Assembly: GCA_964500785.1 (NCBI GenBank)
Contig: CAZCQM010000001.1
Location: forward strand, 1 to 38,234
Length of the DNA stretch: 38,234 nt
Direction: 5' to 3'
DNA from: an uncultured bacterium
Lineage (GTDB): Bacteria; Krumholzibacteriota; Krumholzibacteriia; WVZY01; JAKEHA01
The position numbers and the translations under genes are program-made. Under the pieces are notes generated by a model. It was not told the DNA's origin. It saw nothing but the letters and a program-made list of their open reading frames with translations, and made no database searches. Positions within the stretch are counted from its first letter, which is position 1. Every line of letters begins with the position of its first letter. Of the stretch, positions 5,407 through 24,522 are shown piece after piece.

Positions 5407-5532
5407 AACCGCCTCCGGACGGGCCCGATGCCCGTTCCGCAGCCGTCGGTTGCGCAAGTTCGCCGCTTCGCCTATTCTAGGGGGACAGGAAATTCCAACT
5501 TCTTTTTCATCTTCAAACAGGGAGGCATCATC

Positions 5533-5958
5533 ATGGCTGCGCTTCTACGCACAGGAAAGGGCGAATGGCACGGGGATCTCAAGGCCGGGAACGGGAAGCT
5601 GGGCTCCACCAGCGGACTGTTCAACGACATGCCCTTCACGTTCGCCACGCGTTTTGAAAACGCCAAAGGAACCAATCCGGAAGAGCTCATCGCCGCGGCG
5701 CACGCCGGCTGTTTCAGCATGGCCTTCTCCAACTACCTGAGCAAGCAGGGACACGTCCCCGACACGATTACCACCAAAGCGACGATCTCGCTCGAGGACG
5801 GCAAGATCAACAAGATGCACCTGGAGACGCGCGGCAAGGTGGCCGGAATCGACGACGCGACCTTCAAGAAGATGGCCGTCGAGGCGGAAAAGACCTGCCC
5901 CGTGTCCGTGTTGCTCCGTCCGGGTCTGTCCATCACGCTCGACGCGGCCCTGTTGTAG
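5533..5958 (+). CDS. osmC: OsmC-family peroxiredoxin
   Basis: GEWHGDLKAGNGKL...TNPEELIAAAHAGCFSMAF...AEKTCPVS carries the two conserved OsmC cysteines. GGAGG at 5521-5525 precedes the ATG at 5533; the listed 5428 start would add an implausible leader. Confidence 0.85.
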   Translation: MAALLRTGKGEWHGDLKAGNGKLGSTSGLFNDMPFTFATRFENAKGTNPEELIAAAHAGCFSMAFSNYLSKQGHVPDTITTKATISLEDGKINKMHLETRGKVAGIDDATFKKMAVEAEKTCPVSVLLRPGLSITLDAALL

Positions 5959-5972
5959 GCCGGGGAGGTGTC

Positions 5973-7121
5973 GTGAGCCGTCGTCGCATCGCAGCGGCCG
6001 CGATCGTGTACGTCTGCGCGTGGGCGGCGGCGGGCACCGCAATCGCACAGCAGCCGCGGTTTTCGGACGACTTCGAGCACGGGCTCGATGCGTGGGAGAT
6101 CCTCGGGGAGGACGGCGTGTTGCTGCGCGACTCGGGGGATCCCGCCCACGGACACGTCATGCTCCTGCGTCCACAGGGAAACGTGCTCGCGTTGATTCAC
6201 GGCTCTGACCGCTGGGGCGCGGTTCGGATCGAAGGCGACGTCATGTTCCCGACCGACGAGCACAGCTACCTCGGCGTGGCGTACGACTACCAGCGTACCG
6301 GCGATCGCCAGGACTTCGGGCTCATCTATGTAAAGGGCGACGGATCGTACCTGATGGTGAATCCGCGCCGGGACCTCAACGTCGGGCGTACCCTCTACGA
6401 AGAGTTCCACGTGGACCTCGAAGGCGACGCCGCCATCGAGATGGGCGAGTGGCGACACTTCCGGGTGGAAGTCGAAGGTAACATCTGTCATTTCTACGTT
6501 GGTGACGTCTCCACGCCCCAGCTGACGTTCCCGTTTCTCGAGCTCGATCACGGCGCGGTCGGTTTCGAACCGCGCTCGGTGGGCGGTGACGTGTGGGTCG
6601 ACAACATCACGGTGGTGTCGATCCGCCACCTCGCCTACAAGGGACCACGGCGGCCGGCCGGCATTCAGTACGACCCCGAGGCCCTGTTGACCAACTGGGA
6701 AGTCATCGGTCCGTTGCCCCGGACCGACGATTCCGTGGCCCGGGATCCCGAAGGGGCCGGTGAGCGCTGGCAACCCTTCGAGACCGACGATCGCGGCGCC
6801 GTGATCACGGGCCGGGTCGTCGACTATCTGGGACCGAACACGGTCGCGTATTTTCGCACGCAGGTCGGGCGCGACGAGGCGGGTCCGGCGATGCTCCGCC
6901 TGAGCACCGTGGACGACCTCGCCCTGTGGGTCAACGGGCGCTTCCAGGGATTCATCCCGCGGGGCGACCGCGCGTGGTACGACTTCTGGCGCAACGATCA
7001 GCACGAAGGCGCTCGCGTTCCCATCGAACTCGTTACGGGGAAGAACGACATCGTGCTGCGCGTCCGGGGCGGCGTGTACGCGAGCGGTGGGTTCTTCGCC
7101 CGCGTAGAAAGAGCACGGTAA
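5973..7121 (+). CDS. Secreted two-domain jelly-roll protein (N-terminal DUF1080/LamG-like); function unknown
   Basis: Signal peptide (AAAGTAIAQQ). FSDDFEHGLDAWEILGEDGVLL...HGHVMLL...YLGVAYDY resembles the DUF1080 concanavalin-like fold. GTG start with GGGGAGG upstream. Confidence 0.55.
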   Translation: MSRRRIAAAAIVYVCAWAAAGTAIAQQPRFSDDFEHGLDAWEILGEDGVLLRDSGDPAHGHVMLLRPQGNVLALIHGSDRWGAVRIEGDVMFPTDEHSYLGVAYDYQRTGDRQDFGLIYVKGDGSYLMVNPRRDLNVGRTLYEEFHVDLEGDAAIEMGEWRHFRVEVEGNICHFYVGDVSTPQLTFPFLELDHGAVGFEPRSVGGDVWVDNITVVSIRHLAYKGPRRPAGIQYDPEALLTNWEVIGPLPRTDDSVARDPEGAGERWQPFETDDRGAVITGRVVDYLGPNTVAYFRTQVGRDEAGPAMLRLSTVDDLALWVNGRFQGFIPRGDRAWYDFWRNDQHEGARVPIELVTGKNDIVLRVRGGVYASGGFFARVERAR

Positions 7122-7124
7122 CCC

Positions 7125-7601
7125 ATGCGCGCAATCCAGGACCTCTATCCCGACGATTTCTCGCACTGCTACGGATGCGGACGCCTCAACGCGCACGGCC
7201 ATCAGCTCAAGAGCTACGTGGACGGCGACGACGTCGTGGCGCGGTTCACACCGTCGGCACAGCATATGGCGCTTCCGGGATTCGTCTACGGCGGGCTGAT
7301 CGCGTCGCTCATCGACTGCCACGCCATGGCGACCGCGGCGGCCGCCGCGGAGAGAGCGGCGGGACGCGAGATCGGCGACGCGCCGGCGCCGCGATTCGTC
7401 ACCGCGTCGCTCGCGGTCAATTACGTGAAACCCACGCCGCTCGGACCGGAGCTCGAGATACGCGGACATGTGCGCGAGCGAACCGATCGCAAGGCGATCG
7501 TCGAGCTGACGGTCGCGGCGTCGGGTGTGGTTACGGCGCAAGGCGAGGCGGTCGCCGTACCGATGCCGCCCAACATGGGCCGCACCCCGCATTCGTCCTG
7601 A
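7125..7601 (+). CDS. PaaI-family hotdog-fold thioesterase
   Basis: CYGCG N-terminal motif followed by PGFVYGGLIASLIDCHAM, typical of PaaI/YbgC-like thioesterases. Starts 3 nt after the preceding stop. Confidence 0.8.
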   Translation: MRAIQDLYPDDFSHCYGCGRLNAHGHQLKSYVDGDDVVARFTPSAQHMALPGFVYGGLIASLIDCHAMATAAAAAERAAGREIGDAPAPRFVTASLAVNYVKPTPLGPELEIRGHVRERTDRKAIVELTVAASGVVTAQGEAVAVPMPPNMGRTPHSS

Positions 7602-7651
7602 GGACCGTTCGGACACCGGCCGCCGGCGCGCCGCACTGAAGGAGGACCATC

Positions 7652-8071
7652 GTGAGTACACCGACAGCACATTCACTCGGCTACGAAGTCGAACTGCCCA
7701 TGGCGTTCGATCCGGCCATCGAACACGTCACCGCCGAGCTCAAGAAGGAAGGGTTCGGGATCCTGTCCCGCATCGACGTCCATCTGGCGTTCAAGGAGAA
7801 GCTCGGCAAGGATTTTCGACGCTATGCGATTCTCGGCGCGTGCAATCCACCGCTTGCCTTCCAGGCGCTCACCTCACGACCGGAGACGGGACTCCTGCTG
7901 CCGTGCAACGTGACGGTGGAAGAGACCGGCCCGGATGCGTGCCAGGTGCGCATCATCAAAGCGGGGGAGATGATGAAGATGGCGCGTCTGGACCGTGACG
8001 CGACCATCGCAAAGGTGGGCGCCGAAGCGGATGCCCGCCTGACGCGCGTTGCACAGGCGCTCCGCGGTTGA
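7652..8071 (+). CDS. DUF302 domain protein
   Basis: AIEHVTAELKKEGFGILSRIDVHLAFKEKLGKDFRRYAILGACNPPLA...LLPCNV is the DUF302 signature. GGAGG lies 6 nt before the GTG. Confidence 0.8.
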   Translation: MSTPTAHSLGYEVELPMAFDPAIEHVTAELKKEGFGILSRIDVHLAFKEKLGKDFRRYAILGACNPPLAFQALTSRPETGLLLPCNVTVEETGPDACQVRIIKAGEMMKMARLDRDATIAKVGAEADARLTRVAQALRG

Positions 8072-8172
8072 CCGCGGCGTGCGACGGCACCGCCGTCGCG
8101 GTTGGCGGAGGCATCCGGAATTCGTATCATCGCGCAGGCGATCAGGTTTCCAAACCACCCGGGAGGTTCATC

Positions 8173-8943
8173 GTGAAGATACTGTCTCTTTCGATTCTCG
8201 CCGCTTTCCTCGTGACGACGGCGCACGCCGAAGTCCACTTCGATCCCGTCGTGTACAAACAGGGCGATACGACGCTGCGCGGGTATATCGCGTACGATGA
8301 CGCGACGACCGGAAAGCGACCCGGCGTCGTCGTGGTCCACGAATGGTGGGGTCTCAACGACTACACGAAGAAACGGACGCGGATGCTCGCGGAGGCGGGA
8401 TACGTCGCGTTCGCCGCGGATATGTACGGCGACGGCAAGACCACCGAACACCCCAGGGAGGCCGGTGAGTGGTCCGGCGCCATCGCCAAGAATCAGCAGA
8501 TGGCGATCGACCGTTTCAACGCCGCCGTCGCGCAGCTCAAGAAGAACCCGAACGTCGACCCCGACCACATCGCCGCCATCGGCTACTGCTTCGGCGGTTC
8601 GGTCGTCCTCGGCATGGCGATGGGCGGCGCGGATCTCGATGGCGTCGTGAGTTTCCACGGCGGTCTGCCCTCCGACCCGGCGTCGGGGAAGGTGACCGCG
8701 AGTATTCTCGTCTGCAACGGCGCCCTGGACCAGTTCGCGACGCCCGAGTTGATCCAGACGTTCCAGAAGAACCTGACCGATGCGGGTGCCGACTGGGAAT
8801 TCATCAACTACGGGAACGCGCGTCATTCGTTCACCAACCCGAGCGCCGACACGCACGGAATACCGAACCTCGCGTATAACGAGAAGGCGGACAAGCGCTC
8901 GTGGCAGACGGCGTTGAACTTCCTGGCCGAGGTCACACACTGA
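8173..8943 (+). CDS. Secreted dienelactone hydrolase family protein
   Basis: Signal peptide VKILSLSILAAFLVTTAHA. PGVVVVHEWWGLNDY...AFAADMYGDG...IGYCFGG (nucleophile elbow with Cys) ...NARHSF. GTG at 8173 with GGGAGG upstream is preferred over the listed 8068. Confidence 0.85.
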   Translation: MKILSLSILAAFLVTTAHAEVHFDPVVYKQGDTTLRGYIAYDDATTGKRPGVVVVHEWWGLNDYTKKRTRMLAEAGYVAFAADMYGDGKTTEHPREAGEWSGAIAKNQQMAIDRFNAAVAQLKKNPNVDPDHIAAIGYCFGGSVVLGMAMGGADLDGVVSFHGGLPSDPASGKVTASILVCNGALDQFATPELIQTFQKNLTDAGADWEFINYGNARHSFTNPSADTHGIPNLAYNEKADKRSWQTALNFLAEVTH

Positions 8944-10791: not shown

Positions 10792-11328
10792 ATGACCGCT
10801 CGGAATTCGAACATCCGCCGTCGTCCGGAGCCATCGGAGTACTTCGAGTACTATCACCGCTACATCGAACAGGTGCCGGACGGTGACATCGTCGACGTCC
10901 TTCGCGCCCAGTTCGAAGAGGCCGCCGCCTTTCTCGCCCGGGTTCCCAGGGACCGCGTCGAGTTTCGCTACGCTCCCGGCAAGTGGACGCTCAAGGAAGT
11001 CGTGGGGCACGTCCTCGACATGGAATGGGTGTTCACCGCGCGCGCGGTTCATTTCGCCCGCGCCGTCCCCGGCGCGCTGCCGGGTGCCGAGCAGGAGGAC
11101 GTGATGGCGGTGGCGAACTTCGGAGAGCGGCCGCTCGACGAAGTCGTCGACGAATGGGGCCATTTGCGCGCCGCCGGGGTGCGGTTCTTCGAGGGAATCG
11201 ACGCCGCCGCGTGGGATCGAGCCGGTACCGCCTCGGGGCGGCGATTCACCGTGCGCGCCTTCCCCTACATCATCGCCGGGCACGCGCATCACCACATGAA
11301 CGTGATTCGCGAGAAGTACCTCGGTTAG
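10792..11328 (+). CDS. DinB-family (four-helix bundle, metal-binding) protein
   Basis: YFEYYHRYI...KWTLKEVVGHVLDME...AGHAHHHMNVIR gives the His triad spacing typical of DinB_2. AGGAG lies upstream. Confidence 0.8.
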   Translation: MTARNSNIRRRPEPSEYFEYYHRYIEQVPDGDIVDVLRAQFEEAAAFLARVPRDRVEFRYAPGKWTLKEVVGHVLDMEWVFTARAVHFARAVPGALPGAEQEDVMAVANFGERPLDEVVDEWGHLRAAGVRFFEGIDAAAWDRAGTASGRRFTVRAFPYIIAGHAHHHMNVIREKYLG

Positions 11329-12161
11329 CCGGCCGATTCGGGCCCGGCCCGGAGCAGCGACAGGACGAACCGGTTCCAGCCCGCGGGACCCACGTCGTCG
11401 ACGCGGACGACGTTCGGAACGTCGATGTCCTCCCACGTCCCCGGCGCCTTCTGAACCAGAACGGGAACGTCCATCGCGCGCAGCAACGCGGCGTCGTTGA
11501 AGCTGTCGCCGATTCCCACCAACCGCACGTCTCCGTCGCGCCGCCGGTAGAGCTCCGCGAGTATGAGCGCGGCCGCGCCCTTGTTGGAGCGGCCGGTGAC
11601 GCTGTAATAGCGCCCTCCGCGCGCGAGGGAGAGGCCGCGACGGGCCAGCGCGCGGCCCACCGTGCCGGCGTCGTCGGGCGCGAGCGGGGTCACGATCGAC
11701 TCCTGGAACTCTCTCTGCCGCGCGCGTCGCGCCGACTCGACATCCAGCCCCGTGCGCTCGGCGACGTCCTCGTCGGTGAGGTCACCGTAACCCGTCAATT
11801 CGATTCCCGTCTCCTCGCGGATCGCCCGGATCGCTTCCCGGACGACGTCGTAAACGGGCCCAAGGCGGATGACGAGCATCCCGTCGTCCGCTCGATCACA
11901 CACGAACTCGAAGGGGAAGTAGCCGGGGTCGATGTACACGGCGGAGCCGTCTTCGACGATGAACGGATGGCCGACGCCCAGACGTTCGCGGAGTTCCATC
12001 TGCTCCGCGCGTGTCTTCGACGAGCAGAACACCAGGGGGACGTTCTTCGTGCGAATAACGTCGAGGGCGGGTAGCGCCGCATGGCAGTCGTACGTCGCCC
12101 GGTCGAGGAGCGTGCCGTCGAGGTCGGTGAAGATGATGGGAAGGTCGGAACGCGATGACAT
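11325..12161 (-). CDS. mpgP: Mannosyl-3-phosphoglycerate phosphatase (HAD-IIB)
   Basis: IIFTDLDGTLL...VFCSSKTRAEQ...PFIVEDGSAVYIDPGYFPFEF...SNKGAA...GDSFND closely matches archaeal and Thermus MpgP as I remember them. The ATG is at 12161-12159; the listed 573-aa ORF is a run-through into the upstream gene. Confidence 0.9.
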   Translation of the reverse strand: MSSRSDLPIIFTDLDGTLLDRATYDCHAALPALDVIRTKNVPLVFCSSKTRAEQMELRERLGVGHPFIVEDGSAVYIDPGYFPFEFVCDRADDGMLVIRLGPVYDVVREAIRAIREETGIELTGYGDLTDEDVAERTGLDVESARRARQREFQESIVTPLAPDDAGTVGRALARRGLSLARGGRYYSVTGRSNKGAAALILAELYRRRDGDVRLVGIGDSFNDAALLRAMDVPVLVQKAPGTWEDIDVPNVVRVDDVGPAGWNRFVLSLLRAGPESAG

Positions 12162-12166
12162 GGCGC

Positions 12167-13795
12167 TCACCCCAGGAACTCGAGAGCCCGGGCCAGGATG
12201 ATGATCCCGACCGAGTACGCCAGCAGGGACAGAATGAGCCCCCGGTGGTTGTGGATGAATCGCGGGACGTCCCCGCGGACGAACGCCGTCGGCTCTCCCG
12301 ATGCCATCGTCTCCATGCGGTGCCACAGTGCGGCGAATCCCATCGCGGCGAAGAATCCGGTGACGTTCCACCACAGCCACGAGACGTCGGTCAACTGCCA
12401 GATCAGCACGTTCACCGCGATGCCGGCGACGACGCCGGCCCGGGTCTGGCGGGCCGTGGCGAGCGTGGTGATGCCGAGGAGGAACGCGGCCAGGATGGGG
12501 CCGTAGAGCAGGCTCCCGACGGAGTTGATGAGCACGATGGTGGTCTCCCGGACCGCCTGGCCCGACCCGGCGAACACCAGCGCGGCCAGGATGCAGAAGG
12601 TGCCCCAGAACGCGGTGAACAGCTTGGAGACGATGAGGTAGTGCCGGTCGCTGGCGGCGGGCCTGACGTAGGCGCGATAGACGTCCTGCATGGTGACGGC
12701 GCTCAGGGAGTTGATCGCGGAGTCGAGGCTCGACATGAGCGCGGACAGGATGGCGGCGATCACCAGGCCGACGACTCCCACGGGCAGGAACGCGAGCACG
12801 AACATCGGCACCATGCGGTCGGGATTCGCCTGCAACGTCGATGTCACCGACGCCGGGTTCATGCCCAGTGCGCCCGCCACGTCGGCCACGCGGTCCGGCG
12901 CCGCGAAGACGGCGCCGATCATCACGCCCATCAGGCAGTAGAGCAGGACGACGGGAAAGCGGCCGAACGCGTTGACGAGCAGAGAACGTCGCACGTCGCG
13001 CACCGAGCCCACGGAGAGCTCGCGCTGGACCTGGCTCTGATCGCACCCGTAATAGGATGCGTAGAGGAAGATGCCGCCGATAGTCATGGGCCAGAATCCG
13101 TACTCGCCCTTTCCCCCGATCCCGAGACCGCTGAAGTCGAGCACGCGGGCGCGTTCGGGCCCGAGCGCGGCCCAGCCGGCGCTCCAGCCCACCATGTGGA
13201 GCGCCACACCGCCGCAGATCAGAATCCCGATGACGATGATCGCCATCTGCAGGACGTCGCTCATGATGACGACGCGCATGCCGCCCATGACGTCGTAGAT
13301 CATGGTGACGACGCCGATGACCAGAATGGCCTCCGCGGTCGAAAGGGGAGTGGCGGTGGAGAGGATCAACCCGCCTGCCAGCACCGAGACGGCCGTGGCC
13401 AGCCCCCGGCCCAGCTGGAAGAGAATGCTGACGAGAGTCCGCGTTCCCCGGTCGAAGCGCTCTTCGAGGAACGCGTACGCGCTGACGTATCCGCCGTCGT
13501 GGAGCCGGGGCACGATCACGACCATCGCCACGAGCACCCCGATGGGAACGCCGAACTCATAGCAGAGCCACTTGAGACCGCCGTCCGGCTTGATGGCGAC
13601 GAACGCCGGCGCCGACACGAAGCTGATCGCGCCGAGCTGTGTGGCCATGGTCGACAGTCCCGATTGCCACCAGCGTATCTTGCGACCCGCCAGGTAGTAA
13701 TCGTGCACACTGTGCTGCGTGCGCCCGAACCAGTAGGCAAGGACGATGATGACCAGGAAGTAGGCGAGAACTACGATCCAGTCCAGAACCGCCAT
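12167..13795 (-). CDS. Sodium:solute symporter family (SSF/SLC5-like) transporter
   Basis: DYYLAGRKIRWWQSGLSTMATQLGAISFVSAPA plus about 13 TM segments. It sits 12 nt after mpgS and 5 nt before mpgP. Confidence 0.9.
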   Translation of the reverse strand: MAVLDWIVVLAYFLVIIVLAYWFGRTQHSVHDYYLAGRKIRWWQSGLSTMATQLGAISFVSAPAFVAIKPDGGLKWLCYEFGVPIGVLVAMVVIVPRLHDGGYVSAYAFLEERFDRGTRTLVSILFQLGRGLATAVSVLAGGLILSTATPLSTAEAILVIGVVTMIYDVMGGMRVVIMSDVLQMAIIVIGILICGGVALHMVGWSAGWAALGPERARVLDFSGLGIGGKGEYGFWPMTIGGIFLYASYYGCDQSQVQRELSVGSVRDVRRSLLVNAFGRFPVVLLYCLMGVMIGAVFAAPDRVADVAGALGMNPASVTSTLQANPDRMVPMFVLAFLPVGVVGLVIAAILSALMSSLDSAINSLSAVTMQDVYRAYVRPAASDRHYLIVSKLFTAFWGTFCILAALVFAGSGQAVRETTIVLINSVGSLLYGPILAAFLLGITTLATARQTRAGVVAGIAVNVLIWQLTDVSWLWWNVTGFFAAMGFAALWHRMETMASGEPTAFVRGDVPRFIHNHRGLILSLLAYSVGIIILARALEFLG

Positions 13796-13807
13796 AGCGC
13801 CGATCGT

Positions 13808-15034
13808 CTACCCGATGCGGATGGTCTTGTCGGAACTATTGCCGTAGGTGTTTGCCAGGTGCCGGCCGTAGTCGGTCTCGGCGATGCACTCCAGGAACTT
13901 CTCGAGGTCGATCGACGACAGCGCCGGGAAGTACCGTGGCTTCGGGAACGGCGACTTGCTGCTCGGGATCAACCCGCGCCGCGCCGCGTCGGCGGCGATT
14001 TCGCGCCGGATCGATTCCGGGCACAGGCGGGAGTGATACACCACCTGCATGGCCTGGAGTTGCATGCGGTCGATGTGGCTCTCGTCGCCCGCCTCGTGGA
14101 GGTGCGGATTGCGCGACTCGATCTGGAAGACCTCGACACGGGGCTGGGTCGACCCGGAGTTCTCCAGGATGCCGCCGTAGCGCTCCAGTATGTTGATGAT
14201 GTGGTACGGCTCGATCGAGTACCCGGCGGAATAGTCGAGGTTCATGGCGAGGTCCATCGTGAGCGCGTGCTCGCCCGCGTTCCCCGTCTTGACGATCTCG
14301 GTCTCGAAACCGGTGTAGTGGTCGATGATACGGTTGAGCAGTCGGTTGGTATTGACCGTGCTCCGCCCCCACTTGCGGAAGAACAGCTTGGACTCGACGA
14401 TCTTCGGCTTGCTGTGCCACGCGATGCGCACCATCGAATGCGAAGACCGGCTGATCGCGAAACCGGCCGCGTATTCGCGGACGTATTCCTCGACGGCGCC
14501 GGGGAAGTAGTTATCCGAGTCGACGAAACCGACGTACTTCTTTCCCGCCAGACGCGCCAGCAGCGTGCCGATCAGCATGCCTTCGGCCTTGCCGTCACGG
14601 ACCACGCCGTTCGGGCTCAGGATCTTGCGGTAGCCGGTTTCCGCGAACGCCTTGCTCAGCGCGGGATCCTGCTGGTGTGCGATCAGGACCTTCTTTCCCA
14701 CGAAGGTGCAGAAGTCGCTGACGGCGTCTTTCTCGATGCCGAAACGGTCCACCGACTTGCGGGGGCTGTTGGATACCACGATGGTCAGGCACGCGTGCGG
14801 GACGCCGCACAGGACGCCCTCGATGAGCTTGAGGCGCTCGCCCTTCACCGGGATGACGATCGCCATGTCCTTCTGAATCTTGTACAGCTCGCGGTAGGAG
14901 ACGGCGCGGATCACGCGTGACAGTTCGGCCGGCGACTCTTCGCCCAGGCCCGAGTCCAGCTCGAACACTTTTTGAAGATCGCCGAATCGCACCGCGCCGA
15001 TACGCTCGACGTTCTTGGGCAATTCGATTCGCAT
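13808..15034 (-). CDS. mpgS: Mannosyl-3-phosphoglycerate synthase (GT55)
   Basis: IVIPVKGERLKLIEGVL...IVVSNS...HQQDPALSKAF...DGKAEGM...GFVDSDNYFPGAVEEYVREYAAGF...TGNAGEHALT...GYSIEPY...FQIESRNPHLHE is collinear with Pyrococcus and Rhodothermus MPGS as I remember them. The ATG is at 15034-15032. Confidence 0.93.
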   Translation of the reverse strand: MRIELPKNVERIGAVRFGDLQKVFELDSGLGEESPAELSRVIRAVSYRELYKIQKDMAIVIPVKGERLKLIEGVLCGVPHACLTIVVSNSPRKSVDRFGIEKDAVSDFCTFVGKKVLIAHQQDPALSKAFAETGYRKILSPNGVVRDGKAEGMLIGTLLARLAGKKYVGFVDSDNYFPGAVEEYVREYAAGFAISRSSHSMVRIAWHSKPKIVESKLFFRKWGRSTVNTNRLLNRIIDHYTGFETEIVKTGNAGEHALTMDLAMNLDYSAGYSIEPYHIINILERYGGILENSGSTQPRVEVFQIESRNPHLHEAGDESHIDRMQLQAMQVVYHSRLCPESIRREIAADAARRGLIPSSKSPFPKPRYFPALSSIDLEKFLECIAETDYGRHLANTYGNSSDKTIRIG

Positions 15035-15036
15035 GT

Positions 15037-16752
15037 CTATCGACCTCCTCGGACGATCTCTCCGATCTGCTCGGAGGTCGCCTCCCAGTTCTTTCTGGCG
15101 TCTCCCTGGAGCAACCCGACGTCGGCGGCGAGGCTGTCCAGGTAGCACTGCACGTGCGCCAGGGGCTCCCACAGGGCTTCGTCTCCATACTTGAACCCGT
15201 ATCGCGACGAGCTGCCGAGCTTCTCGACGACCGAACGGGCGGGATCGTAGTCGGTGTTTCCGACGGTCTCCGGCGAGAAACCGTTGCGGCGCGCGATCTC
15301 GTCGAATGCGTCGTGGACGTTGGCGCCGTGCTGGGCGGCCTCCTTGGCGCGGAACGCGACGTCCTCGGGGACGCCGAGAGCGATGCTCGCCGCGCGATGA
15401 ACGCGCTTGCGCACCTCGTCGGCGCCCTTGTGAATCTTGAGTTGCGGCGAAATCGAGAACGCGGTTTCGATCACCATCGGGTCCAGGAACGGAACGCGCA
15501 GCTCCAGGCTGTGCGCCATGGCGATCTTGTCCTCGCGCTCCAGGCACTCCTTGTAGAGGAGGAACGTGTCCTCCCACGAGCGCTCCACGAATTCTTCGTA
15601 TCCTTCGCGATCGACGATCGCGGCGTACCACGGATACCCACCGAAGAGCTCGTCGGCGCCCTGGCCGTTCATGATGACCAGCTCGCCGGCCTCCTGGGCG
15701 GCGCGGATGGACGCGAAGACCGGCACCGCGACTTCCACCTGGTTGAGACTGTGGTCCTCGATGGTCGCCATCACTTCGGGGAGCATCGCTTCGATGTCGT
15801 CGGTGGTAAGCTCCACCAGCTCGAGCGGGAAATCGTGTTCCTCGGCCGTCCGCAACGCCCACTCGGCGTCGGGCGCGCTCCGGCTTCGTCCCGCGGTGTA
15901 GCACGTGAACGGCGCGCCGGTGCGGCGCACGAGCTCCGCGATCAGGAAACTGTCGACGCCCCCCGAGTAGATGACTCCGATGCGCGGCTGTCCGACCACG
16001 CGCTTGCGCACGGACTCCTCCAGGACGCGCGCGTACTGATTGACCGCCATGCGCGGATCGGTGATACGCGCCGTCTGTCGGGGCGCCTTCGGTTCCCAGA
16101 AGCGGCGTGTCTCCGAGTGACCCGGCTCCATGATGAGCATGTGCCCGGGGAGGAGGCGTTTGATCTCGGCGCCCTCGCCGGCCACGGCCCACAGGGCCTT
16201 CTTCTCGGACGCGAATGCCACGATGCCGTCGCCCGCCGCGGCGTAGTAGAGCTGTCGCACGCCGATGCGGTCGCGCGCGATGACCGTCATGCGCCCATCG
16301 GTGACGGCGGCCGCGTAGACGCCGTCGAGGTGGGGAAGCACGTGCTCCATCGCGAGCACCAGGTCCCCGCGGTAAACATCCTCGAGCAACCGGCAGAAGA
16401 CCTCGCTGTCGCTTCCCGTGGCCAGTGGCTCACCGCCCTTGAGGCCCCGCCACAACTCACGGTAGTTGTAGATCTCACCGTTATGCAGCAGGTGGAGCCG
16501 GCCGTCCGCAGACGCGAACGGCTGCACGCCCTCCGCACTGCCGGTGATGGCGAGGCGGACGTGGCCGAGCCCCGCCGTACCCATCTTGTTGCGGAAGTCG
16601 ATTTCGTCGAGCGACGACCGGCGCTGGCACTCGGTGCCGACGACGATACCCGCCCCGTCGGGTCCGCGATGATGCTGCGCGCGCAGCATCGATTCGAGCA
16701 GCGGTCCGAGATCCCGTTCCTCCCGGGTCACGATTCCGGCGATGCCACACAT
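15037..16752 (-). CDS. Asparagine-synthase-like glutamine amidotransferase (class II Ntn GATase plus PP-loop ATP pyrophosphatase)
   Basis: N-terminal MCGIAG (Cys nucleophile), HRGPDG, PP-loop YSGGVDS, ELRVPFLD. Its stop is 2 nt before the mpgS ATG, and its ATG is 2 nt after the marR stop. Confidence 0.88.
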   Translation of the reverse strand: MCGIAGIVTREERDLGPLLESMLRAQHHRGPDGAGIVVGTECQRRSSLDEIDFRNKMGTAGLGHVRLAITGSAEGVQPFASADGRLHLLHNGEIYNYRELWRGLKGGEPLATGSDSEVFCRLLEDVYRGDLVLAMEHVLPHLDGVYAAAVTDGRMTVIARDRIGVRQLYYAAAGDGIVAFASEKKALWAVAGEGAEIKRLLPGHMLIMEPGHSETRRFWEPKAPRQTARITDPRMAVNQYARVLEESVRKRVVGQPRIGVIYSGGVDSFLIAELVRRTGAPFTCYTAGRSRSAPDAEWALRTAEEHDFPLELVELTTDDIEAMLPEVMATIEDHSLNQVEVAVPVFASIRAAQEAGELVIMNGQGADELFGGYPWYAAIVDREGYEEFVERSWEDTFLLYKECLEREDKIAMAHSLELRVPFLDPMVIETAFSISPQLKIHKGADEVRKRVHRAASIALGVPEDVAFRAKEAAQHGANVHDAFDEIARRNGFSPETVGNTDYDPARSVVEKLGSSSRYGFKYGDEALWEPLAHVQCYLDSLAADVGLLQGDARKNWEATSEQIGEIVRGGR

Positions 16753-16754
16753 GG

Positions 16755-17357
16755 CTAGGCCTCCCCCGGTGCGCCCGGATCGCGGGGCGCGGCGCCGGAA
16801 TCCGCGCCTTCAGGCGGGGATGCGTTGGCTTCCGGCGGTTCCATCAGGTCGACGATGCGCTGGAGCGACAACGCGATGGTTGCCTGCTCGATATCGGGAA
16901 GCGCCTTGAGCGCGTTCGACAGTCCTTCGTGCAGCGGCGATGGTCCCTGGCCGACCAGGGCGATGCCGGTGGGCGTCGCGCTGACATTGACGACGCGGCG
17001 GTCGCGCGTATCGCGCAGGCGCATGATCAGCCCCTTGCTCTCGAGGCGGTCGAGCACGCCCACGACGGTGCTCGGGCTCAGGCTCACCATCTCGGCGAGC
17101 CGTTTGATGGGCAGCGGGGCCTCGCTCACGATCGTCGCGAGGCATACCAGCTGCGGGCCGGTGATCTCGTGGGTCAAGCGCAGGCGCTGCGAGTGGATGT
17201 CCATGCCGCGGATGATCCGCCGCAACGAGCGCAGGATGTGCAGGTCGTAGCGGGCGGGTGGAATCGTCGGCCGGATCTCGGTCGGGCCCGGACTGGCGCC
17301 GTGGGTGCGTCCCGCACCCCGCCGGCCCCCCGAACCCTCGTCGATATGGGAGTTCAT
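16755..17357 (-). CDS. MarR-family transcriptional regulator with low-complexity N- and C-terminal tails
   Basis: The winged-HTH core GPQLVCLATIVSEAPLPIKRLAEMVSLSPSTVVGVLDRLESKGLIMRLRDTRDRRVVNVSATPTG is a classic MarR pattern. It is the first gene of the minus-strand operon. Confidence 0.85.
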   Translation of the reverse strand: MNSHIDEGSGGRRGAGRTHGASPGPTEIRPTIPPARYDLHILRSLRRIIRGMDIHSQRLRLTHEITGPQLVCLATIVSEAPLPIKRLAEMVSLSPSTVVGVLDRLESKGLIMRLRDTRDRRVVNVSATPTGIALVGQGPSPLHEGLSNALKALPDIEQATIALSLQRIVDLMEPPEANASPPEGADSGAAPRDPGAPGEA

Positions 17358-17388: not shown

Positions 17389-17401
17389 AGAAATGATTTC
17401 T
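17389..17401. promoter_or_regulatory. Perfect 6-1-6 palindrome AGAAAT-G-ATTTCT in the marR / GH38 divergent intergenic region (candidate MarR operator)
   Basis: Read directly from the sequence. It lies 32 nt upstream of the marR ATG in the only AT-rich stretch of the region. Confidence 0.4.
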
Positions 17402-17498
17402 GTTGAAATTGATGGTCTCAACCTAACCCCATGGGCGGGGAATGTCAAGTCAGGAGCACCCCGGCACTTGATGATCTAACGGATTGATGGTATTCAAC
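17402..17498. promoter_or_regulatory. Three copies of a TTGATG(G/A)T..(T)CAAC-like motif, one embedded in GTTGA-N11-TCAAC
   Basis: ATTGATGGTCTCAAC at 17408-17422, CTTGATGATCTAAC at 17467-17480, ATTGATGGTATTCAAC at 17483-17498. The inverted repeat is GTTGA at 17402-17406 with TCAAC at 17418-17422. Confidence 0.35.
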
Positions 17499-17557: not shown

Positions 17558-17615
17558 ATGACCGTGAAGGCCCCGCCCCGGACCATTTTTCTGGTCCCGC
17601 ATACCCACTATGACG
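17558..17615 (+). other. Out-of-frame N-terminal fragment of the GH38 mannosidase carrying the metal-binding H-x-H-x-D motif
   Basis: The frame starting at 17558 reads MTVKAPPRTIFLVPHTHYDEG..., the GH38 N-terminal signature, with AAGGAG upstream of its ATG. The rest of the enzyme is in the +1 frame from 17610. Confidence 0.6.
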
Positions 17616-20072
17616 AAGGAGGACTACCTCAACATCCACAAGATGCTCCTCCGGCAGGCGCTCGACATGATCCACGGCAACGGGTTCAAGTTCCTGATCG
17701 AGCAGACCTACCTGCTCGAGCAGATCGAGTCCGACGACCCCGTCCTGTTCGGAGAGATTCGCGAGGCCATCCTGGCGGGGCACATCGAGATCGCAGACGG
17801 CGAGTACCTGATGCCCGATCCCATGATCCCCGCCGAGGAAGTCCTCGTGCGCGAGATCCTCTTCGGCAAGCTCTACTGCAAGGAGACCTTCGGGGTCGAC
17901 GTGCCGGTCGCGTGGATGTCGGACGGTTTCGGTCTCAACGCGCAGCTCCCGCAGATCTACAAGAAGTCCGGCTACAAGTGGCTCGCCTTCCGCCGCGGCC
18001 TCCCGCGCTCGGTGGGATCCCGCACCAGCGAGTTCATGTGGGAAGGTCTCGACGGGACCCGGATCCTCGCGCACTGGATGCCCCTGGGGTATCGCGCCGG
18101 GCTCGACCTCACGAAGTGGAAGGAGTCGCTCGCGACGCTCGAGAATCTCGCGGCGACGCCCAACATCCTCATGCCGTGCGGGAGCGGGGGAATGCTCATC
18201 CAGGAGGAGATTCCCGACGCGGTGCGCGCGTGGAACCAGGGCAACGGCACTCCGAAGATGCAGATCTCCACGCCCAGCCAGTTCTTCGAGGCCGTCGATG
18301 CGGCCGGAGAGCCCCCGACGGTTTTTCGCGGCGAGCTTTACAGCGCCGATCTCGAGGACATCTTCCCGGACGTCGTATCGAGCCGCATATCGCTCAAGCT
18401 CGCCATCCGCGAGTGCGAGGATCTCATCAAGTCGGTGGAGAAGGCGGCGGCGCTCCGCTATCTGGGCGGGCGCGGCTATCCGTCCGACCGCCTCGAGGCG
18501 GCGTGGAAGAAGATGCTCTTTCTGTCGTTCCACGATGTCGTTCCCAGCTGCGGAATCGACGAGGTGTACGAAGAGGCGTGGGAGTACATCGCCGACATCA
18601 AGGCGTTCGCGAAGGCGTTCTACTCCACGATGGCCGACACCCTTCCCCGCAACCAGGCGCGCGGCGTGGCGATCATGGTGTTCAATCCGCACAGCTGGGA
18701 GATCAAGGACTGGGTGGAGGTCGACCTCAAGCTGGGGACGGGCTGGAGCAAGGAGCCCGGCGTCTACGTCGACGGCAAGGAAGTGGTGAGCGAGGCCCGG
18801 GACATCAAGCGCTGGGACGACGGCTCGATCCAGCGAACCAAGCTGGGATTCGTCGCCTCCGGGCCGCCGATGGGATACCGCGTCTACGAGGTGAAACCCA
18901 AGAGCCGCGAGTTCCGGAGCAAGAAGATCACCGTCAGCGGTACGTCCCTGTCCACGAAGTTCTTCGACGTGCGCGTGGACGAGCGCGGCATCCTGGAGGT
19001 TTTCGACCGCAACGGCAAGGAGATCGTGCGCGGCAACGAGGTCGTGATCGACGCCGAGGTCGGCGACCTCTACTTCCACAGGAGTTTCCTCGATCAGTGC
19101 CTCGGGTCGGAGAGCGGCGACGGGATCCGCTTCGGCGCCTTCAAGCCGGAAGGGTTGACCATCGAAAAAGGCGCGGTCCGCTCGATCATCACCTTCAAGA
19201 ACGCGTTCTACTGCCTGCGCTGGCCGTACTACCTGCTCGAGAAGTACAAACCGCTCCTGTACCGGCAGAAGACGCTGGAAGTCACCAAGCGCGTCATCGT
19301 CTACAACGACATCCCGCGCATCGACTTCTTCACCGAGATCGATCTGCAGCAGCCGCACGTCCGCGTCCGCCTGCGTTTCGACACGTGCATGGCCGCTCCG
19401 GCGTACACGCGCGAGACGCAGTTCGGCGCCATCGAGCTCCCCTACCAGCGCACCCTGGAGGAGGGCGTCAAGATGCCGTCGCTGACGTGGATCGTCGCCG
19501 AAGCGGGTGAACGCGGCCTTGCGTTCCTCACCAAGGGTGTGCCCATCAACGAGGTCAAGGGCGGCGAGATCTTCTGCACGCTGCTGCGCAGCGTTTCCGT
19601 GCTCTCGGCGGACGGCGTCAGCGGCCCGCTCATCCCGACCCCCGGCGCGATGGAGCTGGGCCGGCACACCTACCAGTACTCGATTTACCCGTACACCGGC
19701 GACTGGCGCGACGCCCAGGTGCCGCGGGAAGCGTACAGCTTCGGCGAGGGCCTGATCGGGTTCCAGGTCGACCGGCTGCCCGACGAGCGGGAGTCCGAGA
19801 CGTTCCATCTCGAGCCCGACAACCTGGTGACCTCGGCGCTGAAGAAGGCCGAGCGCGAGGAAGCCCTGATCCTGCGCTTTTTCGAGACCAGCGGCCGGGC
19901 CTGCCGGGCCCGTCTGTCGGTGCCTGCCACAATCGGCCGGGTGTCTCATGCGACGCTCCTGGAGGAGGATACGGGGGAAGGAGAGATCCCGATCCGAAAC
20001 GGGAAGGTCGAAATGGACGTCAAGCCCTTCGAGATCATCACCCTGAAGCTCAAAACAATGCTTGTGCCCTGA
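17610..20072 (+). CDS. Glycoside hydrolase family 38 alpha-mannosidase (MngB-like); the main ORF as written lacks the N-terminal HxHxD motif
   Basis: GHIEIADGEYLMPD...LFGKLY...PVAWMSDGFGLNAQLPQIYKKSGYKWLAFRRG (nucleophile Asp region), collinear with bacterial GH38 enzymes such as E. coli MngB. 820 aa. Confidence 0.85.
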   Translation: MTKEDYLNIHKMLLRQALDMIHGNGFKFLIEQTYLLEQIESDDPVLFGEIREAILAGHIEIADGEYLMPDPMIPAEEVLVREILFGKLYCKETFGVDVPVAWMSDGFGLNAQLPQIYKKSGYKWLAFRRGLPRSVGSRTSEFMWEGLDGTRILAHWMPLGYRAGLDLTKWKESLATLENLAATPNILMPCGSGGMLIQEEIPDAVRAWNQGNGTPKMQISTPSQFFEAVDAAGEPPTVFRGELYSADLEDIFPDVVSSRISLKLAIRECEDLIKSVEKAAALRYLGGRGYPSDRLEAAWKKMLFLSFHDVVPSCGIDEVYEEAWEYIADIKAFAKAFYSTMADTLPRNQARGVAIMVFNPHSWEIKDWVEVDLKLGTGWSKEPGVYVDGKEVVSEARDIKRWDDGSIQRTKLGFVASGPPMGYRVYEVKPKSREFRSKKITVSGTSLSTKFFDVRVDERGILEVFDRNGKEIVRGNEVVIDAEVGDLYFHRSFLDQCLGSESGDGIRFGAFKPEGLTIEKGAVRSIITFKNAFYCLRWPYYLLEKYKPLLYRQKTLEVTKRVIVYNDIPRIDFFTEIDLQQPHVRVRLRFDTCMAAPAYTRETQFGAIELPYQRTLEEGVKMPSLTWIVAEAGERGLAFLTKGVPINEVKGGEIFCTLLRSVSVLSADGVSGPLIPTPGAMELGRHTYQYSIYPYTGDWRDAQVPREAYSFGEGLIGFQVDRLPDERESETFHLEPDNLVTSALKKAEREEALILRFFETSGRACRARLSVPATIGRVSHATLLEEDTGEGEIPIRNGKVEMDVKPFEIITLKLKTMLVP

Positions 20073-20325: not shown

Positions 20326-21234
20326 ATGGCCATGCCCGTACGTAAGACTTCGACGCCCGCGACGCCGCGGGCACCGGCGACCCGCAGCGGCGCCGGCCCC
20401 GGGCGTTGGGTGCTTCCTCCTCTCGTGCTGTTCGCGATCATCGCCGCCGTGGGGGCTCCCTACTTCCTGCTTCCGACCGCGGAGCGTCTCCGGTCCCCGC
20501 TGCACGTCTGGTTCCGCCCGTCCGGCTACATCGGGCAGACGACGGGCCTCATCACGTTCGTCGGATTCCTGTTCATGTGGCTCTTCCCGCTGCGGAAGAA
20601 GTTCCGCAAGGCCGAGTACCTGGGCCCGGTTCCACGCTGGCTGGACGTCCACATCGGCGTGGGTCTAGTGCTCCCGCTGACCGGGGCCATCCACGCCGGG
20701 TTCCACGTGGGCGGCGTCATCGGGCTGGGCTACATCGCCATGCTCATCGTGTGTGCGAGCGGCGTCATCGGCCGCTACCTCTACGTGCGCATTCCGCGCG
20801 GCCGCAGCGGCGTCGAGCTGGGTCTGGGCGACGTCGCCGCCCAGCAGCGCGCGCTCCTCGGCGAGATCGCCGACGCGACGGGGCTTCCCGTGCCCGAGGT
20901 CCAGGAGGCGCTCAAGGTCGACACGTCTCCGGTTCGCAAAGGCATCGTCGCCGCCTTCCTCCAGATGATCCGGGATGACATGGAGCGCGCACGCGTTGTG
21001 CGGCGTCTTCGCAAGCGCCTCAAGGCACGGGGGTCGAGCGCGGCGTCCCTGCGCAAGGTCTCGACGCTGGCGCGCCGCCAGATGTCGCTCAGCCAGCAGG
21101 CGCGGCTGCTCGACGTGACGCAGGGCATCTTCCGTTACTGGCACGCGGCGCACCGCCCCTTCGCCATCACCGCGTTTATCGCCGTCACGATCCACGTCGT
21201 GGTCGTGGTCGCCGTCGGCGCCACCTGGTTCTAG
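20326..21234 (+). CDS. Five-TM membrane protein with two H-x13-H pairs (ferric-reductase-domain-like di-heme b candidate)
   Basis: Predicted TM3 is LDVH-IGVGLVLPLTGAI-H and predicted TM5 is AAH-RPFAITAFIAVTI-H. Each His pair is exactly 13 residues apart, and the two helices have the same orientation. Arg-rich N-terminus and loops fit a cytoplasmic location. Confidence 0.55.
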   Translation: MAMPVRKTSTPATPRAPATRSGAGPGRWVLPPLVLFAIIAAVGAPYFLLPTAERLRSPLHVWFRPSGYIGQTTGLITFVGFLFMWLFPLRKKFRKAEYLGPVPRWLDVHIGVGLVLPLTGAIHAGFHVGGVIGLGYIAMLIVCASGVIGRYLYVRIPRGRSGVELGLGDVAAQQRALLGEIADATGLPVPEVQEALKVDTSPVRKGIVAAFLQMIRDDMERARVVRRLRKRLKARGSSAASLRKVSTLARRQMSLSQQARLLDVTQGIFRYWHAAHRPFAITAFIAVTIHVVVVVAVGATWF

Positions 21235-21252: not shown

Positions 21253-22671
21253 ATGTGGATCACTACGGTAGCATTCGTCGTTCTGACCGCGTTGTTCGTG
21301 GCGCGTCACATGCGCCGGCGTGCGGGCGACACCAAAGGCACCCTGTGCCCGCGCTGTCGCGCCAACGTCCCACCCGGCGCGGCGCGGTGCCCGCGATGCC
21401 ACGTGCCGATGCAGCTCTACGAGGTCGTGAGCGCGAAGGCGGTCACCGATGACGCGGCGTCCGGGGGCGGTGGCGACGCGCACGCCGTGGTCCGCGCCGA
21501 CCTGTGCGTCGGGTGCGGCGCGTGCGTGCCCGTTTGTCCCGAACCCAACGCCATCAAACTGGTGGGCAAGCTCGCCACGGTGAATTCGACGCTGTGCAAG
21601 GGGCACGGCAACTGCGTCGAGGCGTGCCCGGTCGGGGGCATCGTGCTGACGACGGGCGAGGCGGTCCACCGGGTCGAGGTCCCCGAGATCGATACTGATT
21701 TCGAGAGCAACGTGCGCGGTGTCTACGTGGTGGGTGAGCTGGGCGGCCGCGGGCTGATCAAGAACGCCATCAACGAGGCCACCGTGGCCATCGAGCACAT
21801 CGCCGACGACCTCGCGCTGCGGCGCAAGACCGACGCCGAATCGGCCGGTATCCTGGATGTCATCATCGTGGGGAGCGGCCCGGCCGGGCTCGCCGCGGGG
21901 CTCGCGGCGAAGGCGCGCGATCTGCGCTACCTGGTCCTCGAGCGGGGCGCCCTGGCGGACACGATCCGCAAGTACCCGCGGGCAAAGTTCTTGCTTGCCG
22001 AGCCGGTACGCGTCCCCTTGTACGGAAACCTCTGGGTGTCCGACGCCTCCAAGGAGACCCTCCTCAAGGTATGGGAAGAGATCATCCAGCGCACGGGACT
22101 GGACGTGCGCACCAACCACCGCGTCACCGGCGTGGCGCCGGAGGGCGGGCATCTCGTTGTCCGGACCCCGGAGGAGGAGTTCCGCGCGCGGCGCGTGGTC
22201 CTGGCCATGGGGCGTCGCGGAAACCCGCGCCGGCTGGGGGTCACCGGCGAGGATGCGGGCAAGGTCATCTACGACGTCGTCGACATGGAGTCGTTCGCGG
22301 GGCAGCAGATGCTCGTCGTGGGCGGCGGCGACAGCGCGGTGGAGTCGGCGGTCGGCCTGGCTCGACAGCCGGGTACGAAGGTCACCCTGAGTTACCGGGG
22401 CGAGGAGTTCAAGCGAGTCAAGGAACGCAACCGGACCAAGCTCGAGGAAGCGGTGCGCGGCGGAACGCTGCGCGCTCTCCTGCAGAGTCAGGTCAAAGAG
22501 ATTCGTGAAAAAGAAGTCGTCATTGAAGTCGAGGGGCGGGAGGAAGTGTTTGCGAACGATACGGTGGTCGTCCGCATCGGTGGCGATCCGCCGTTTGCGT
22601 TCCTCGAGCAGATCGGAATCCGGATCGTCAAGAAGGACATCCCGCTTCCGCAGGAGGAGGTCTTTGCGTAA
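21253..22671 (+). CDS. Membrane-anchored NAD(P)/FAD-dependent oxidoreductase with zinc-ribbon and 2x[4Fe-4S] ferredoxin domain
   Basis: N-terminal TM helix followed by RRR; CPRC...CPRC; CVGCGACVPVCP and CKGHGNCVEACP; Rossmann motifs VIIVGSGPAGLAAG and LVVGGGDSAVE. Confidence 0.75.
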   Translation: MWITTVAFVVLTALFVARHMRRRAGDTKGTLCPRCRANVPPGAARCPRCHVPMQLYEVVSAKAVTDDAASGGGGDAHAVVRADLCVGCGACVPVCPEPNAIKLVGKLATVNSTLCKGHGNCVEACPVGGIVLTTGEAVHRVEVPEIDTDFESNVRGVYVVGELGGRGLIKNAINEATVAIEHIADDLALRRKTDAESAGILDVIIVGSGPAGLAAGLAAKARDLRYLVLERGALADTIRKYPRAKFLLAEPVRVPLYGNLWVSDASKETLLKVWEEIIQRTGLDVRTNHRVTGVAPEGGHLVVRTPEEEFRARRVVLAMGRRGNPRRLGVTGEDAGKVIYDVVDMESFAGQQMLVVGGGDSAVESAVGLARQPGTKVTLSYRGEEFKRVKERNRTKLEEAVRGGTLRALLQSQVKEIREKEVVIEVEGREEVFANDTVVVRIGGDPPFAFLEQIGIRIVKKDIPLPQEEVFA

Positions 22672-22693
22672 CACGGGGCTGGCCGCGCGGCGA

Positions 22694-24496: not shown

Positions 24497-24522
24497 ACCG
24501 CCTGACGGCGAGGTGATTGGTT

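Follow-up and report, generated by a model that had tools for sequence, protein, structure and literature searches.

The compatible solute mannosylglycerate (MG) is made by an established two-step pathway, in which mannosyl-3-phosphoglycerate synthase (MpgS) joins GDP-mannose to 3-phosphoglycerate and mannosyl-3-phosphoglycerate phosphatase (MpgP) removes the phosphate. In the mngRAB system of Escherichia coli, MngB, an enzyme of glycoside hydrolase family 38 (GH38), hydrolyzes 2-O-(6-phospho-mannosyl)-glycerate. Mannosylglyceramide was reportedly described in Rhodothermus marinus in 1999. This amide of MG replaces MG in that organism as NaCl rises (PMC1224877). In the N-acetylglutaminylglutamine amide (NAGGN) system, the asnO-ngg(-pepA) operon of Pseudomonas aeruginosa is repressed by the MarR-type protein PA3458, whose binding site lies 11 bp downstream of the −10 element, AsnO amidates an osmolyte precursor, and asnO-ngg is also found in Sinorhizobium meliloti (PMC8070244). 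Here we analyze a 38,234-nt stretch (the window) of contig CAZCQM010000001.1 (assembly GCA_964500785.1) from an uncultured bacterium of the Krumholzibacteriota, in which mpgS and mpgP share a minus-strand operon with genes for a MarR-family regulator, an AsnB-like glutamine-dependent amidotransferase and a transporter of the sodium:solute symporter family (SSF). We consider it somewhat probable that this operon is autoregulated by its MarR protein, makes MG and amidates it to mannosylglyceramide, with uptake by the SSF transporter and turnover by a divergently encoded GH38 enzyme. In the open-access literature, we found no paper that names a mannosylglyceramide biosynthetic gene or describes a link between asnB and mpgS.

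As an earlier note on this DNA had read it, the block consists of five head-to-tail open reading frames (ORFs; 17357..11325) in the order marR, asnB-like, mpgS, SSF, mpgP; family thresholds and ORF calls uphold all of these identities and their order, and the intergenic gaps, put by the note at 12 nt or less, measure 2, 2, 12 and 5 nt. Every protein of the operon scores above a curated family threshold. MpgS reaches 472 bits against the equivalog model TIGR02460 (cut-off 351) and 486 bits against PF09488, covering model positions 2–379 of 381, and its residues 1–384 align with the Thermus (PDB 2WVK, E 3e-107) and Pyrococcus (2ZU7, 1e-105) structures; an 18-sequence alignment of the family has 37 invariant columns. 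MpgP exceeds the cut-off of the subfamily model TIGR01486 (230 bits against 165), carries HAD motif I (DxDGT) as DLDGT at residues 14–18 and matches PDB entries 3ZTW (8e-35) and 1WZC (2e-33); it falls narrowly below the cut-off of the equivalog model TIGR02461 (225.9 bits against 244.35), and its function is assigned because of the subfamily match together with the position of the gene beside mpgS. The MarR protein matches PF01047 with 59 bits (cut-off 24.6, 4e-16, residues 65–123), and no NCBIfam equivalog model reaches its cut-off for this protein. Similarly, the transporter scores 221 bits against the superfamily model TIGR00813 (cut-off 184) and 136 bits against PF00474 (TC 2.A.21), and no substrate-specific equivalog model passes.

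The AsnB-like protein matches PF00733 (155 bits), GATase_7 (97 bits) and TIGR01536 (306 bits, cut-off 267), and the nearest solved structures, which are true asparagine synthetases, are matched at only E ~1e-30. Its glutamine site is conserved: Cys2, Arg66, Asn91, Glu93 and Asp115 correspond to E. coli Cys1, Arg49, Asn74, Glu76 and Asp98, with the glutamine-binding residues kept in 119–120 of 120 clade members and the counterpart of Cys1 present in 112 of the 120 rows (the other 8 have a gap). The PP-loop S263-GGVDS268 and Lys470, equivalent to Lys449 of the E. coli adenylation site, are invariant in the same clade, and Lys429, Asp351 and Glu352 (E. coli AsnB positions) are also conserved in the protein. 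With its Ntn cysteine, glutamine-binding residues, PP-loop and adenylate-site lysines all in place, the enzyme is expected to hydrolyze glutamine, activate a carboxylate by adenylation and pass the ammonia on to it.

The acceptor pocket is altered. At the position of E. coli Glu348 (human Glu364), the window protein has Gln364, and each of the 120 clade members and 97 family members likewise has Gln; E. coli Asp384 (human Asp400) is replaced by Cys403 here and by Cys, Thr or Ser throughout the family; and E. coli Lys376 is replaced by Asp395 here and by Asp in the family. HMMER and MAFFT alignments agree on these positions. In human asparagine synthetase (ASNS), the positively charged amino group is accommodated in a pocket made up of Glu364, Asp367 and Asp400, and the E364Q mutant is inactive with Asp, ATP and NH4+ (Zhu et al. 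2019, PMC6748925). Of the features that define an asparagine synthetase, the glutamine site and the PP-loop are present, and the conserved Glu and the acidic residue at Asp384 are absent. The AsnB-like protein is thus probably not an asparagine synthetase, having lost a residue needed for asparagine synthesis, and a pocket devoid of two acidic residues fits an acceptor that lacks an α-amino group, such as the glycerate moiety of MG.

Two further observations concern the protein itself. A clade-conserved C-terminal segment of ~100 amino acids (GYDP...EKLGSSSRYGxxYG...W.P..HVQ.YLD; encoded within window 15037-15700) has no counterpart in E. coli AsnB and may be a substrate lid. Orthology to AsnO is ruled out by a score of 161 bits against TIGR03104 (cut-off 570) and by the lack of Ngg, as no GNAT/Ngg gene was found among the scanned ORFs of the window.

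The genomic context of the AsnB-like family was surveyed in locus sets retrieved by motif patterns, with the best 80 loci kept (proportions drawn from them are biased by this retrieval and are not unbiased frequencies) and neighboring genes called by a simple ORF and tblastn procedure; retrieved loci are denoted below by L numbers. In the relatives of the AsnB-like protein at 83, 77, 65, 59 and 57% identity, the next gene downstream is always mpgS, a marR gene lies upstream and a GH38 or GH63-type (MGH1-like) hydrolase is encoded nearby. Of the 7 nearest loci examined, 6 have asnB-like directly ahead of mpgS. An MpgS-based scan with one genome per species returned 569 relatives, of which the best 80 were examined. 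Here, 11 of 69 evaluable loci, from Latescibacteria, Ignavibacteria, Verrucomicrobia, Fidelibacterota, Syntrophobacterales and others, have asnB-like as the gene just before mpgS, and in all 11 MpgS is at least ~60% identical to that of the window. The other 58 (Roseivirga, Opitutaceae, Chloroflexota, Deinococcota, KSB1 and a Rhodothermus sp. metagenome-assembled genome among them) have no asnB-like gene and are mostly plain mpgS-mpgP pairs. In a metagenome scan with the AsnB-like alignment, whose best 80 loci span 38–77% identity, mpgS is at most two genes away in 30, many contigs being too short to judge. A plasmid collection yielded only generic AsnB proteins at no more than 35% identity, and no cassette.

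Altogether, asnB-like adjoins mpgS in 49 retrieved loci, in three arrangements: asnB>mpgS in 26 (median gap 34 nt), mpgS>HAD>asnB in 21 and divergent in 2. The first order belongs to bacteria of the Fibrobacteres–Chlorobi–Bacteroidetes and Planctomycetes–Verrucomicrobia–Chlamydiae (FCB/PVC) groups and the second to soil ammonia-oxidizing archaea (AOA), where it is found on low-GC contigs that also carry archaeal EF-2 and PurP-type genes and in the complete genome of Ca. Nitrososphaera gargensis Ga9.2 (CP002408.1); the HAD protein is a 216–218-aa phosphatase that is not of the MpgP type. That the linkage persists across gene orders and domains of life argues strongly for a shared function. Papers on AOA treat MpgS as a marker of MG. 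In the Ga9.2 locus (L169, CP002408.1 2113334-2129007; genes at 5016-8674 of the locus, with asnB-like at 2120334-2122007 of the genome) and in L098, L110 and L114, mpgS is followed by a generic HAD gene (PF00702/PF12710, not HAD-IIB) and then by asnB-like, and this phosphatase may be a non-orthologous replacement of MpgP in AOA. No residue signature tied to the asnB linkage was found in MpgS, which therefore probably keeps its usual substrates; this weakly favors amidation after glycosyl transfer.

The SSF gene recurs in the same manner. It lies between mpgS and mpgP in 8 species-representative loci. Orthologs at 59–69% identity occupy this place in L003/L009, L010, L013, L015, L017, L018, L021 and L090, and come after mpgS in L005/L006, L011, L094 and L095; the closest relatives, L001 and L002, have no SSF gene, and L021, from a Planctomycetia, has SSF without asnB. 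The gene order of the window is reproduced in L003/L009 and L090 at ~65% protein identity, and a marR gene precedes asnB-like in L001-L007, L009-L011, L017, L018, L090 and L091. The recurrence of these arrangements in related and distant genomes rejects chance adjacency: the AsnB-like and SSF genes, which the earlier note had called passengers, are conserved parts of a cassette. The surveys, which include one of mpgS neighborhoods as it had suggested, found both partners recurring, in 49 and 8 loci, and this recurrence supports its view of an elaborated module for synthesis, modification and uptake or recycling; we refine the modification to a hypothetical amidation of MG to mannosylglyceramide. 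Its premise that mpgS and mpgP are normally adjacent agrees with the species-representative loci, 58 of 80 of which have mpgP after mpgS at a distance of no more than 700 nt. Pairs split by SSF or GH38 genes elsewhere show that the split is not unique to the window; GH38 genes separate mpgS from mpgP in five Chloroflexota loci (L040, L049, L053, L076 and L080).

The regulatory region upstream of marR is also conserved. A TTGAC[AC] hexamer, a 17-nt spacer and TAnnnT occupy the same place in the window, L001, L003 and L090, the −10 counterparts in the orthologous loci being TACCTT, TACTAT and TAGCAT at the same spacing. This predicted promoter, whose −10 element is weak, was missed by a generic scan that returned a single weak site; it is called by its conserved position and not by its score. 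The palindrome that follows, 18 nt past the −10 and 32 nt ahead of the marR start codon, is part of a box that occurs once in the window, where 0 chance matches are expected. L001 has the same palindrome in the same layout, and L003 and L090 carry ACAAA-NNN-TTTGT, in which a compensatory G:C to C:G change keeps the palindrome intact; more distant loci carry other upstream motifs. The conserved promoter and the palindrome with its compensatory change support an autoregulated operon, in line with the dedicated repressor postulated in the earlier note, and we infer that MarR regulates its own operon through this predicted operator. No second copy of the box was found near the start of the GH38 gene, so that GH38 is not shown to be under the same control as the operon.

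The GH38 gene, which lies beyond the block that the earlier note had described, belongs to the mannosylglycerate system. Its product contains PF01074, PF09261, PF07748 and PF17677, and its sole NCBIfam match is the mannosylglycerate hydrolase model NF007331 (212 bits, far under the cut-off of 1138). Orthologs at 55–80% identity lie beside the cassette in L001-L004, L009, L010, L014, L017, L020, L090, L091 and L095, and we propose that the enzyme is the hydrolase for mannosyl-solute turnover. Distant GH38 proteins, 24–27% identical to that of the window, are encoded beside mpgS in the asnB-less loci L023, L025-L028, L052, L074, L077, L081 and L082, and hydrolysis of unphosphorylated mannosylglycerate may be a widespread role of GH38 enzymes.

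Three amide-hydrolase superfamilies recur next to the AsnB-like family: C69-like Ntn hydrolases, CN_hydrolases and isochorismatase-domain hydrolases. The C69-like gene (~450 aa) was found only in asnB-containing loci, either beside GH38 or, in L005/L006, near a GH63-type hydrolase gene, and CN_hydrolase genes occur in six loci (L007, L014, L097, L158, L163 and L166). A glycerate kinase gene is present in L004 and L167. Together, the amidase families, the GH38 and GH63 hydrolases and glycerate kinase suggest a cycle in which the amide is made and later taken apart by hydrolysis (amide, glycoside, glycerate).

Several of these loci have further features of their own. In one lineage, represented by L005 (3061-5229) and L006 (1576-3948), the C69-like gene and the MarR-asnB-mpgS-SSF block are accompanied not by GH38 but by a gene for a GH63-type protein with an MGH1-like mannosylglycerate hydrolase domain (PF22422), and there is no adjacent mpgP. 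L007 (7428-10572; Zixibacteria, GCA_054680595.1) carries a MarR-asnB-like (53% identical)-CN_hydrolase block with no mpgS within 8 kb. An isochorismatase-domain hydrolase gene (PF00857, 150 bits) adjoins the AsnB-like gene, with no mpgS in view, on 18 archaeal-type contigs (L118, L126, L129, L133, L134, L138-L150 and L168). In L167 (1764-11340), an asnB-like gene (41% identical) is followed by genes for two proteins of 337–338 aa, which we take to be oxidoreductases, and by an SSF gene 48% identical to that of the window; upstream lie the glycerate kinase gene and an ORF that is presumably a pyruvate kinase gene. L167 may represent a related glycerate-solute module with no mpgS in view.

Combining these data, we arrive at the following scheme. 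MpgS and MpgP would make MG by the established pathway, to which both are assigned by strong family membership. The AsnB-like enzyme would hydrolyze glutamine and, in an ATP-dependent reaction via an acyl-adenylate, convert the glycerate carboxylate of MG or of its phosphorylated intermediate into a carboxamide, amidation before and after dephosphorylation both being compatible with the locus; the expected product is the neutral solute mannosylglyceramide. The SSF transporter is proposed to import or recapture MG or its amide, which is the weakest step of the scheme, and the divergently encoded GH38 enzyme would degrade the solute once it is no longer needed. MarR, as the conserved operator and the NAGGN precedent suggest, would bind the palindrome just downstream of the promoter and repress its own operon until a signal releases it. 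As for the AsnB-like family as a whole, defined by Gln, Asp and Cys/Thr/Ser at E. coli positions Glu348, Lys376 and Asp384, we only tentatively assign it as the mannosylglyceramide synthase, a possibility that falls a little short of being probable.

A number of observations weigh against this scheme, in addition to the retrieval bias stated above. The product is read from gene context and active-site changes. The AsnB-like protein passes the NCBI equivalog cut-off for asparagine synthase, and papers on AOA take the gene as the organisms' own asparagine synthase, EC 6.3.5.4 (PMC7603488). The window itself has a GH38 gene and no amidase gene near the cluster. Members of the family in L007, L093, L101 and L138-L150 (the last with isochorismatase) have no mpgS within 6–8 kb, and more than one carboxylate may serve the family as substrate. 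Furthermore, the Rhodothermus sp. metagenome-assembled genome (L022) carries a plain mpgS-mpgP pair with no asnB-like gene within ~8–10 kb; as this is the one Rhodothermus locus retrieved, R. marinus itself not being among the best 80, the AsnB-like family is not yet tied to the only known mannosylglyceramide producer. R. marinus DSM 4252 has two annotated AsnB paralogs, one of which is absent from strain ISCaR-493 (PMC11730185), and we treat this as a lead only.

The mpgS-less loci speak for an explanation in which the AsnB-like enzyme amidates a different carboxylate, be it that of 3-phosphoglycerate or glycerate at a stage ahead of glycosylation, of some other osmolyte precursor or of a component of the cell envelope, and shares with mpgS only a stress response. 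Such loci are L007, L101, L138-L150 and L167, the last with its presumed oxidoreductases, SSF and glycerate kinase, and AsnB paralogs with non-asparagine roles, for example AsnO in NAGGN synthesis, are known (PMC8070244). Co-regulation alone, however, hardly accounts for an adjacency to mpgS that is kept across two domains of life and in both gene orders, where the genes often overlap or almost touch. An amide acceptor might also be expected to leave linkage-associated changes in MpgS, where there are none, and GH38/GH63 and HAD-IIB genes still lie beside several mpgS-less members (L093, L097 and L159). We therefore regard a different carboxylate as unlikely, if still a serious candidate.

Could the AsnB-like protein instead be a genuine, lineage-specific asparagine synthetase that is incidentally co-transcribed with solute genes? 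Its homologs are annotated as asparagine synthase in all sources, its TIGR01536 score and its conserved catalytic machinery (the glutamine site, the PP-loop, Lys429, Lys449, Asp351 and Glu352) agree with such an activity, and reconstructions of AOA metabolism use it as one. Against this stand the replacement of the required Glu by Gln in every member, a change that inactivates the human enzyme, and the replacement of Asp384 and Lys376; the changes at Glu348 and Asp384 make a genuine asparagine synthetase unlikely. Moreover, it resembles true AsnB structures only distantly, a gene with a housekeeping role would not accompany the rare mpgS across phyla and domains, and amidase genes recur beside it. 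Taking all of this into account, we consider incidental co-transcription of an asparagine synthetase very improbable. That the five genes are not one regulated unit, their adjacency being incidental and MarR controlling something else, is almost certainly wrong: the generic scan gave one weak promoter and terminator-like matches at chance level, but the genes lie 2–12 nt apart on one strand, L003/L009 and L090 repeat their order at ~65% protein identity, and marR is the only gene with a conserved promoter and palindrome ahead of it.

Coordinates of the operon genes, the divergent GH38 gene and the predicted regulatory elements in the window.
Feature	Coordinates	Strand	Details
marR, MarR-family winged-helix regulator, first operon gene	16755..17357	-	ATG 17357, TAG 16755; 200 aa
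asnB-like glutamine-dependent amidotransferase	15037..16752	-	ATG 16752, TAG 15037; 571 aa
mpgS, mannosyl-3-phosphoglycerate synthase (GT55)	13808..15034	-	ATG 15034, TAG 13808; 408 aa
SSF, sodium:solute symporter family transporter	12167..13795	-	ATG 13795, TGA 12167; 542 aa
mpgP, mannosyl-3-phosphoglycerate phosphatase (HAD-IIB)	11325..12161	-	ATG 12161, TAA 11325; 278 aa
GH38 alpha-mannosidase-family gene, divergent from operon	17610..20072	+	820 aa
Predicted operon promoter, -35 hexamer TTGACA	17443..17448	-	positional conservation across loci
Predicted operon promoter, -10 hexamer TAGGTT	17420..17425	-	17 nt after -35
Candidate MarR operator, box TTTCAACAGAAATCATTTCT	17389..17408	-	perfect 5-3-5 palindrome AGAAA-TCA-TTTCT at 17389..17401

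The gene calls are supported by purine-rich, Shine–Dalgarno-like runs ahead of asnB-like (GGGGGAGG), mpgS (GAGGAGG) and mpgP (GGGGTGAG), and by a third-codon-position GC content of ~0.87–0.91 in all five ORFs, as in other real genes of the window (66% GC). An in-frame GTG at 12170 is an alternative start for mpgP and would give a 4-nt overlap with the SSF stop codon. Inside the five-gene block, the generic promoter and terminator scan detected no such signals above chance. At the 3′ end of the operon, a convergent DinB-family gene (10792..11328, plus strand) overlaps the mpgP stop codon by 4 nt (11325-11328), so that no intrinsic terminator would fit between the two transcription units. On the other side, a 252-bp spacer separates marR from the divergent GH38 gene. 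The latter is directly followed by a 302-aa ORF without a Pfam match (20326-21234, plus strand), whose position is kept in L001 and L002 (302 and 303 aa), ahead of a Fer4/pyridine-nucleotide-disulfide oxidoreductase gene. Next on the plus strand (21253-26487) are a gene for a ferredoxin-domain flavoprotein and two large genes for multiheme cytochromes c (Cytochrome_C7, MtrC/MtrF-like domains); their content suggests an extracellular electron-transfer module, syntenic with L002. The remainder of the window is ordinary chromosome, and the closest homologs are named Candidatus Krumholzibacteria and Latescibacterota.

The locus provides a specific, clonable candidate for mannosylglyceramide synthesis, an activity not yet assigned to a gene, and Ca. 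Nitrososphaera gargensis, with its mpgS-HAD-asnB-like arrangement, is an organism in which the candidate could be tested. If the proposed amidation is correct, this would be the second case, after NAGGN, of AsnB-type amidation rendering an anionic osmolyte neutral. Mannosylglyceramide, known only from R. marinus, would also be a product of soil AOA such as Nitrososphaera and of many mesophiles among the FCB/PVC bacteria, extending mannosylglycerate-type solutes well beyond thermophiles. The archaeal 'asparagine synthase' would be misannotated, and its reassignment would correct a widespread annotation on which reconstructions of the metabolism of soil nitrifiers draw. The C69-like, CN_hydrolase and isochorismatase-like neighbors would then be the matching mannosylglyceramide amidases of a cycle of synthesis and degradation, and an enzyme that makes a neutral mannosyl solute would be of biotechnological interest.

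Compared with the classical MG pathway of Thermus thermophilus, Pyrococcus horikoshii and R. marinus, the window contains the same MpgS and MpgP, encoded on one strand and in one operon, but the pair is split by SSF, preceded by an AsnB-family gene and headed by marR, and the host belongs to an uncultured lineage of mesophile type rather than to the thermophiles or hyperthermophiles. As in mngRAB, a GH38 enzyme tied to mannosylglycerate metabolism is encoded next to a regulator gene, and the MngB model is its only NCBIfam match; in contrast to MngB, the score is far below the cut-off and the GH38 gene is paired with a biosynthetic operon. No phosphotransferase system (PTS) transporter is present here, so that the substrate is presumably not phosphorylated on mannose. 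The mannosylglyceramide of R. marinus is the very product expected from AsnB-type chemistry on MG, the gene link to Rhodothermus being only a lead. The closest functional analog is the NAGGN system, from which the window differs in that its AsnB-like protein is not an AsnO ortholog, Ngg is absent and the scaffold is a glycoside and not a dipeptide. Both systems place a MarR-type repressor beside an operon for an AsnB-family amidotransferase that turns (here, by proposal) a carboxylate of an osmolyte precursor into a carboxamide, both have the operator (a predicted one in the window) just downstream of the −10 element, at 11 bp in NAGGN and 18 nt here, and both are accompanied by a hydrolase gene.

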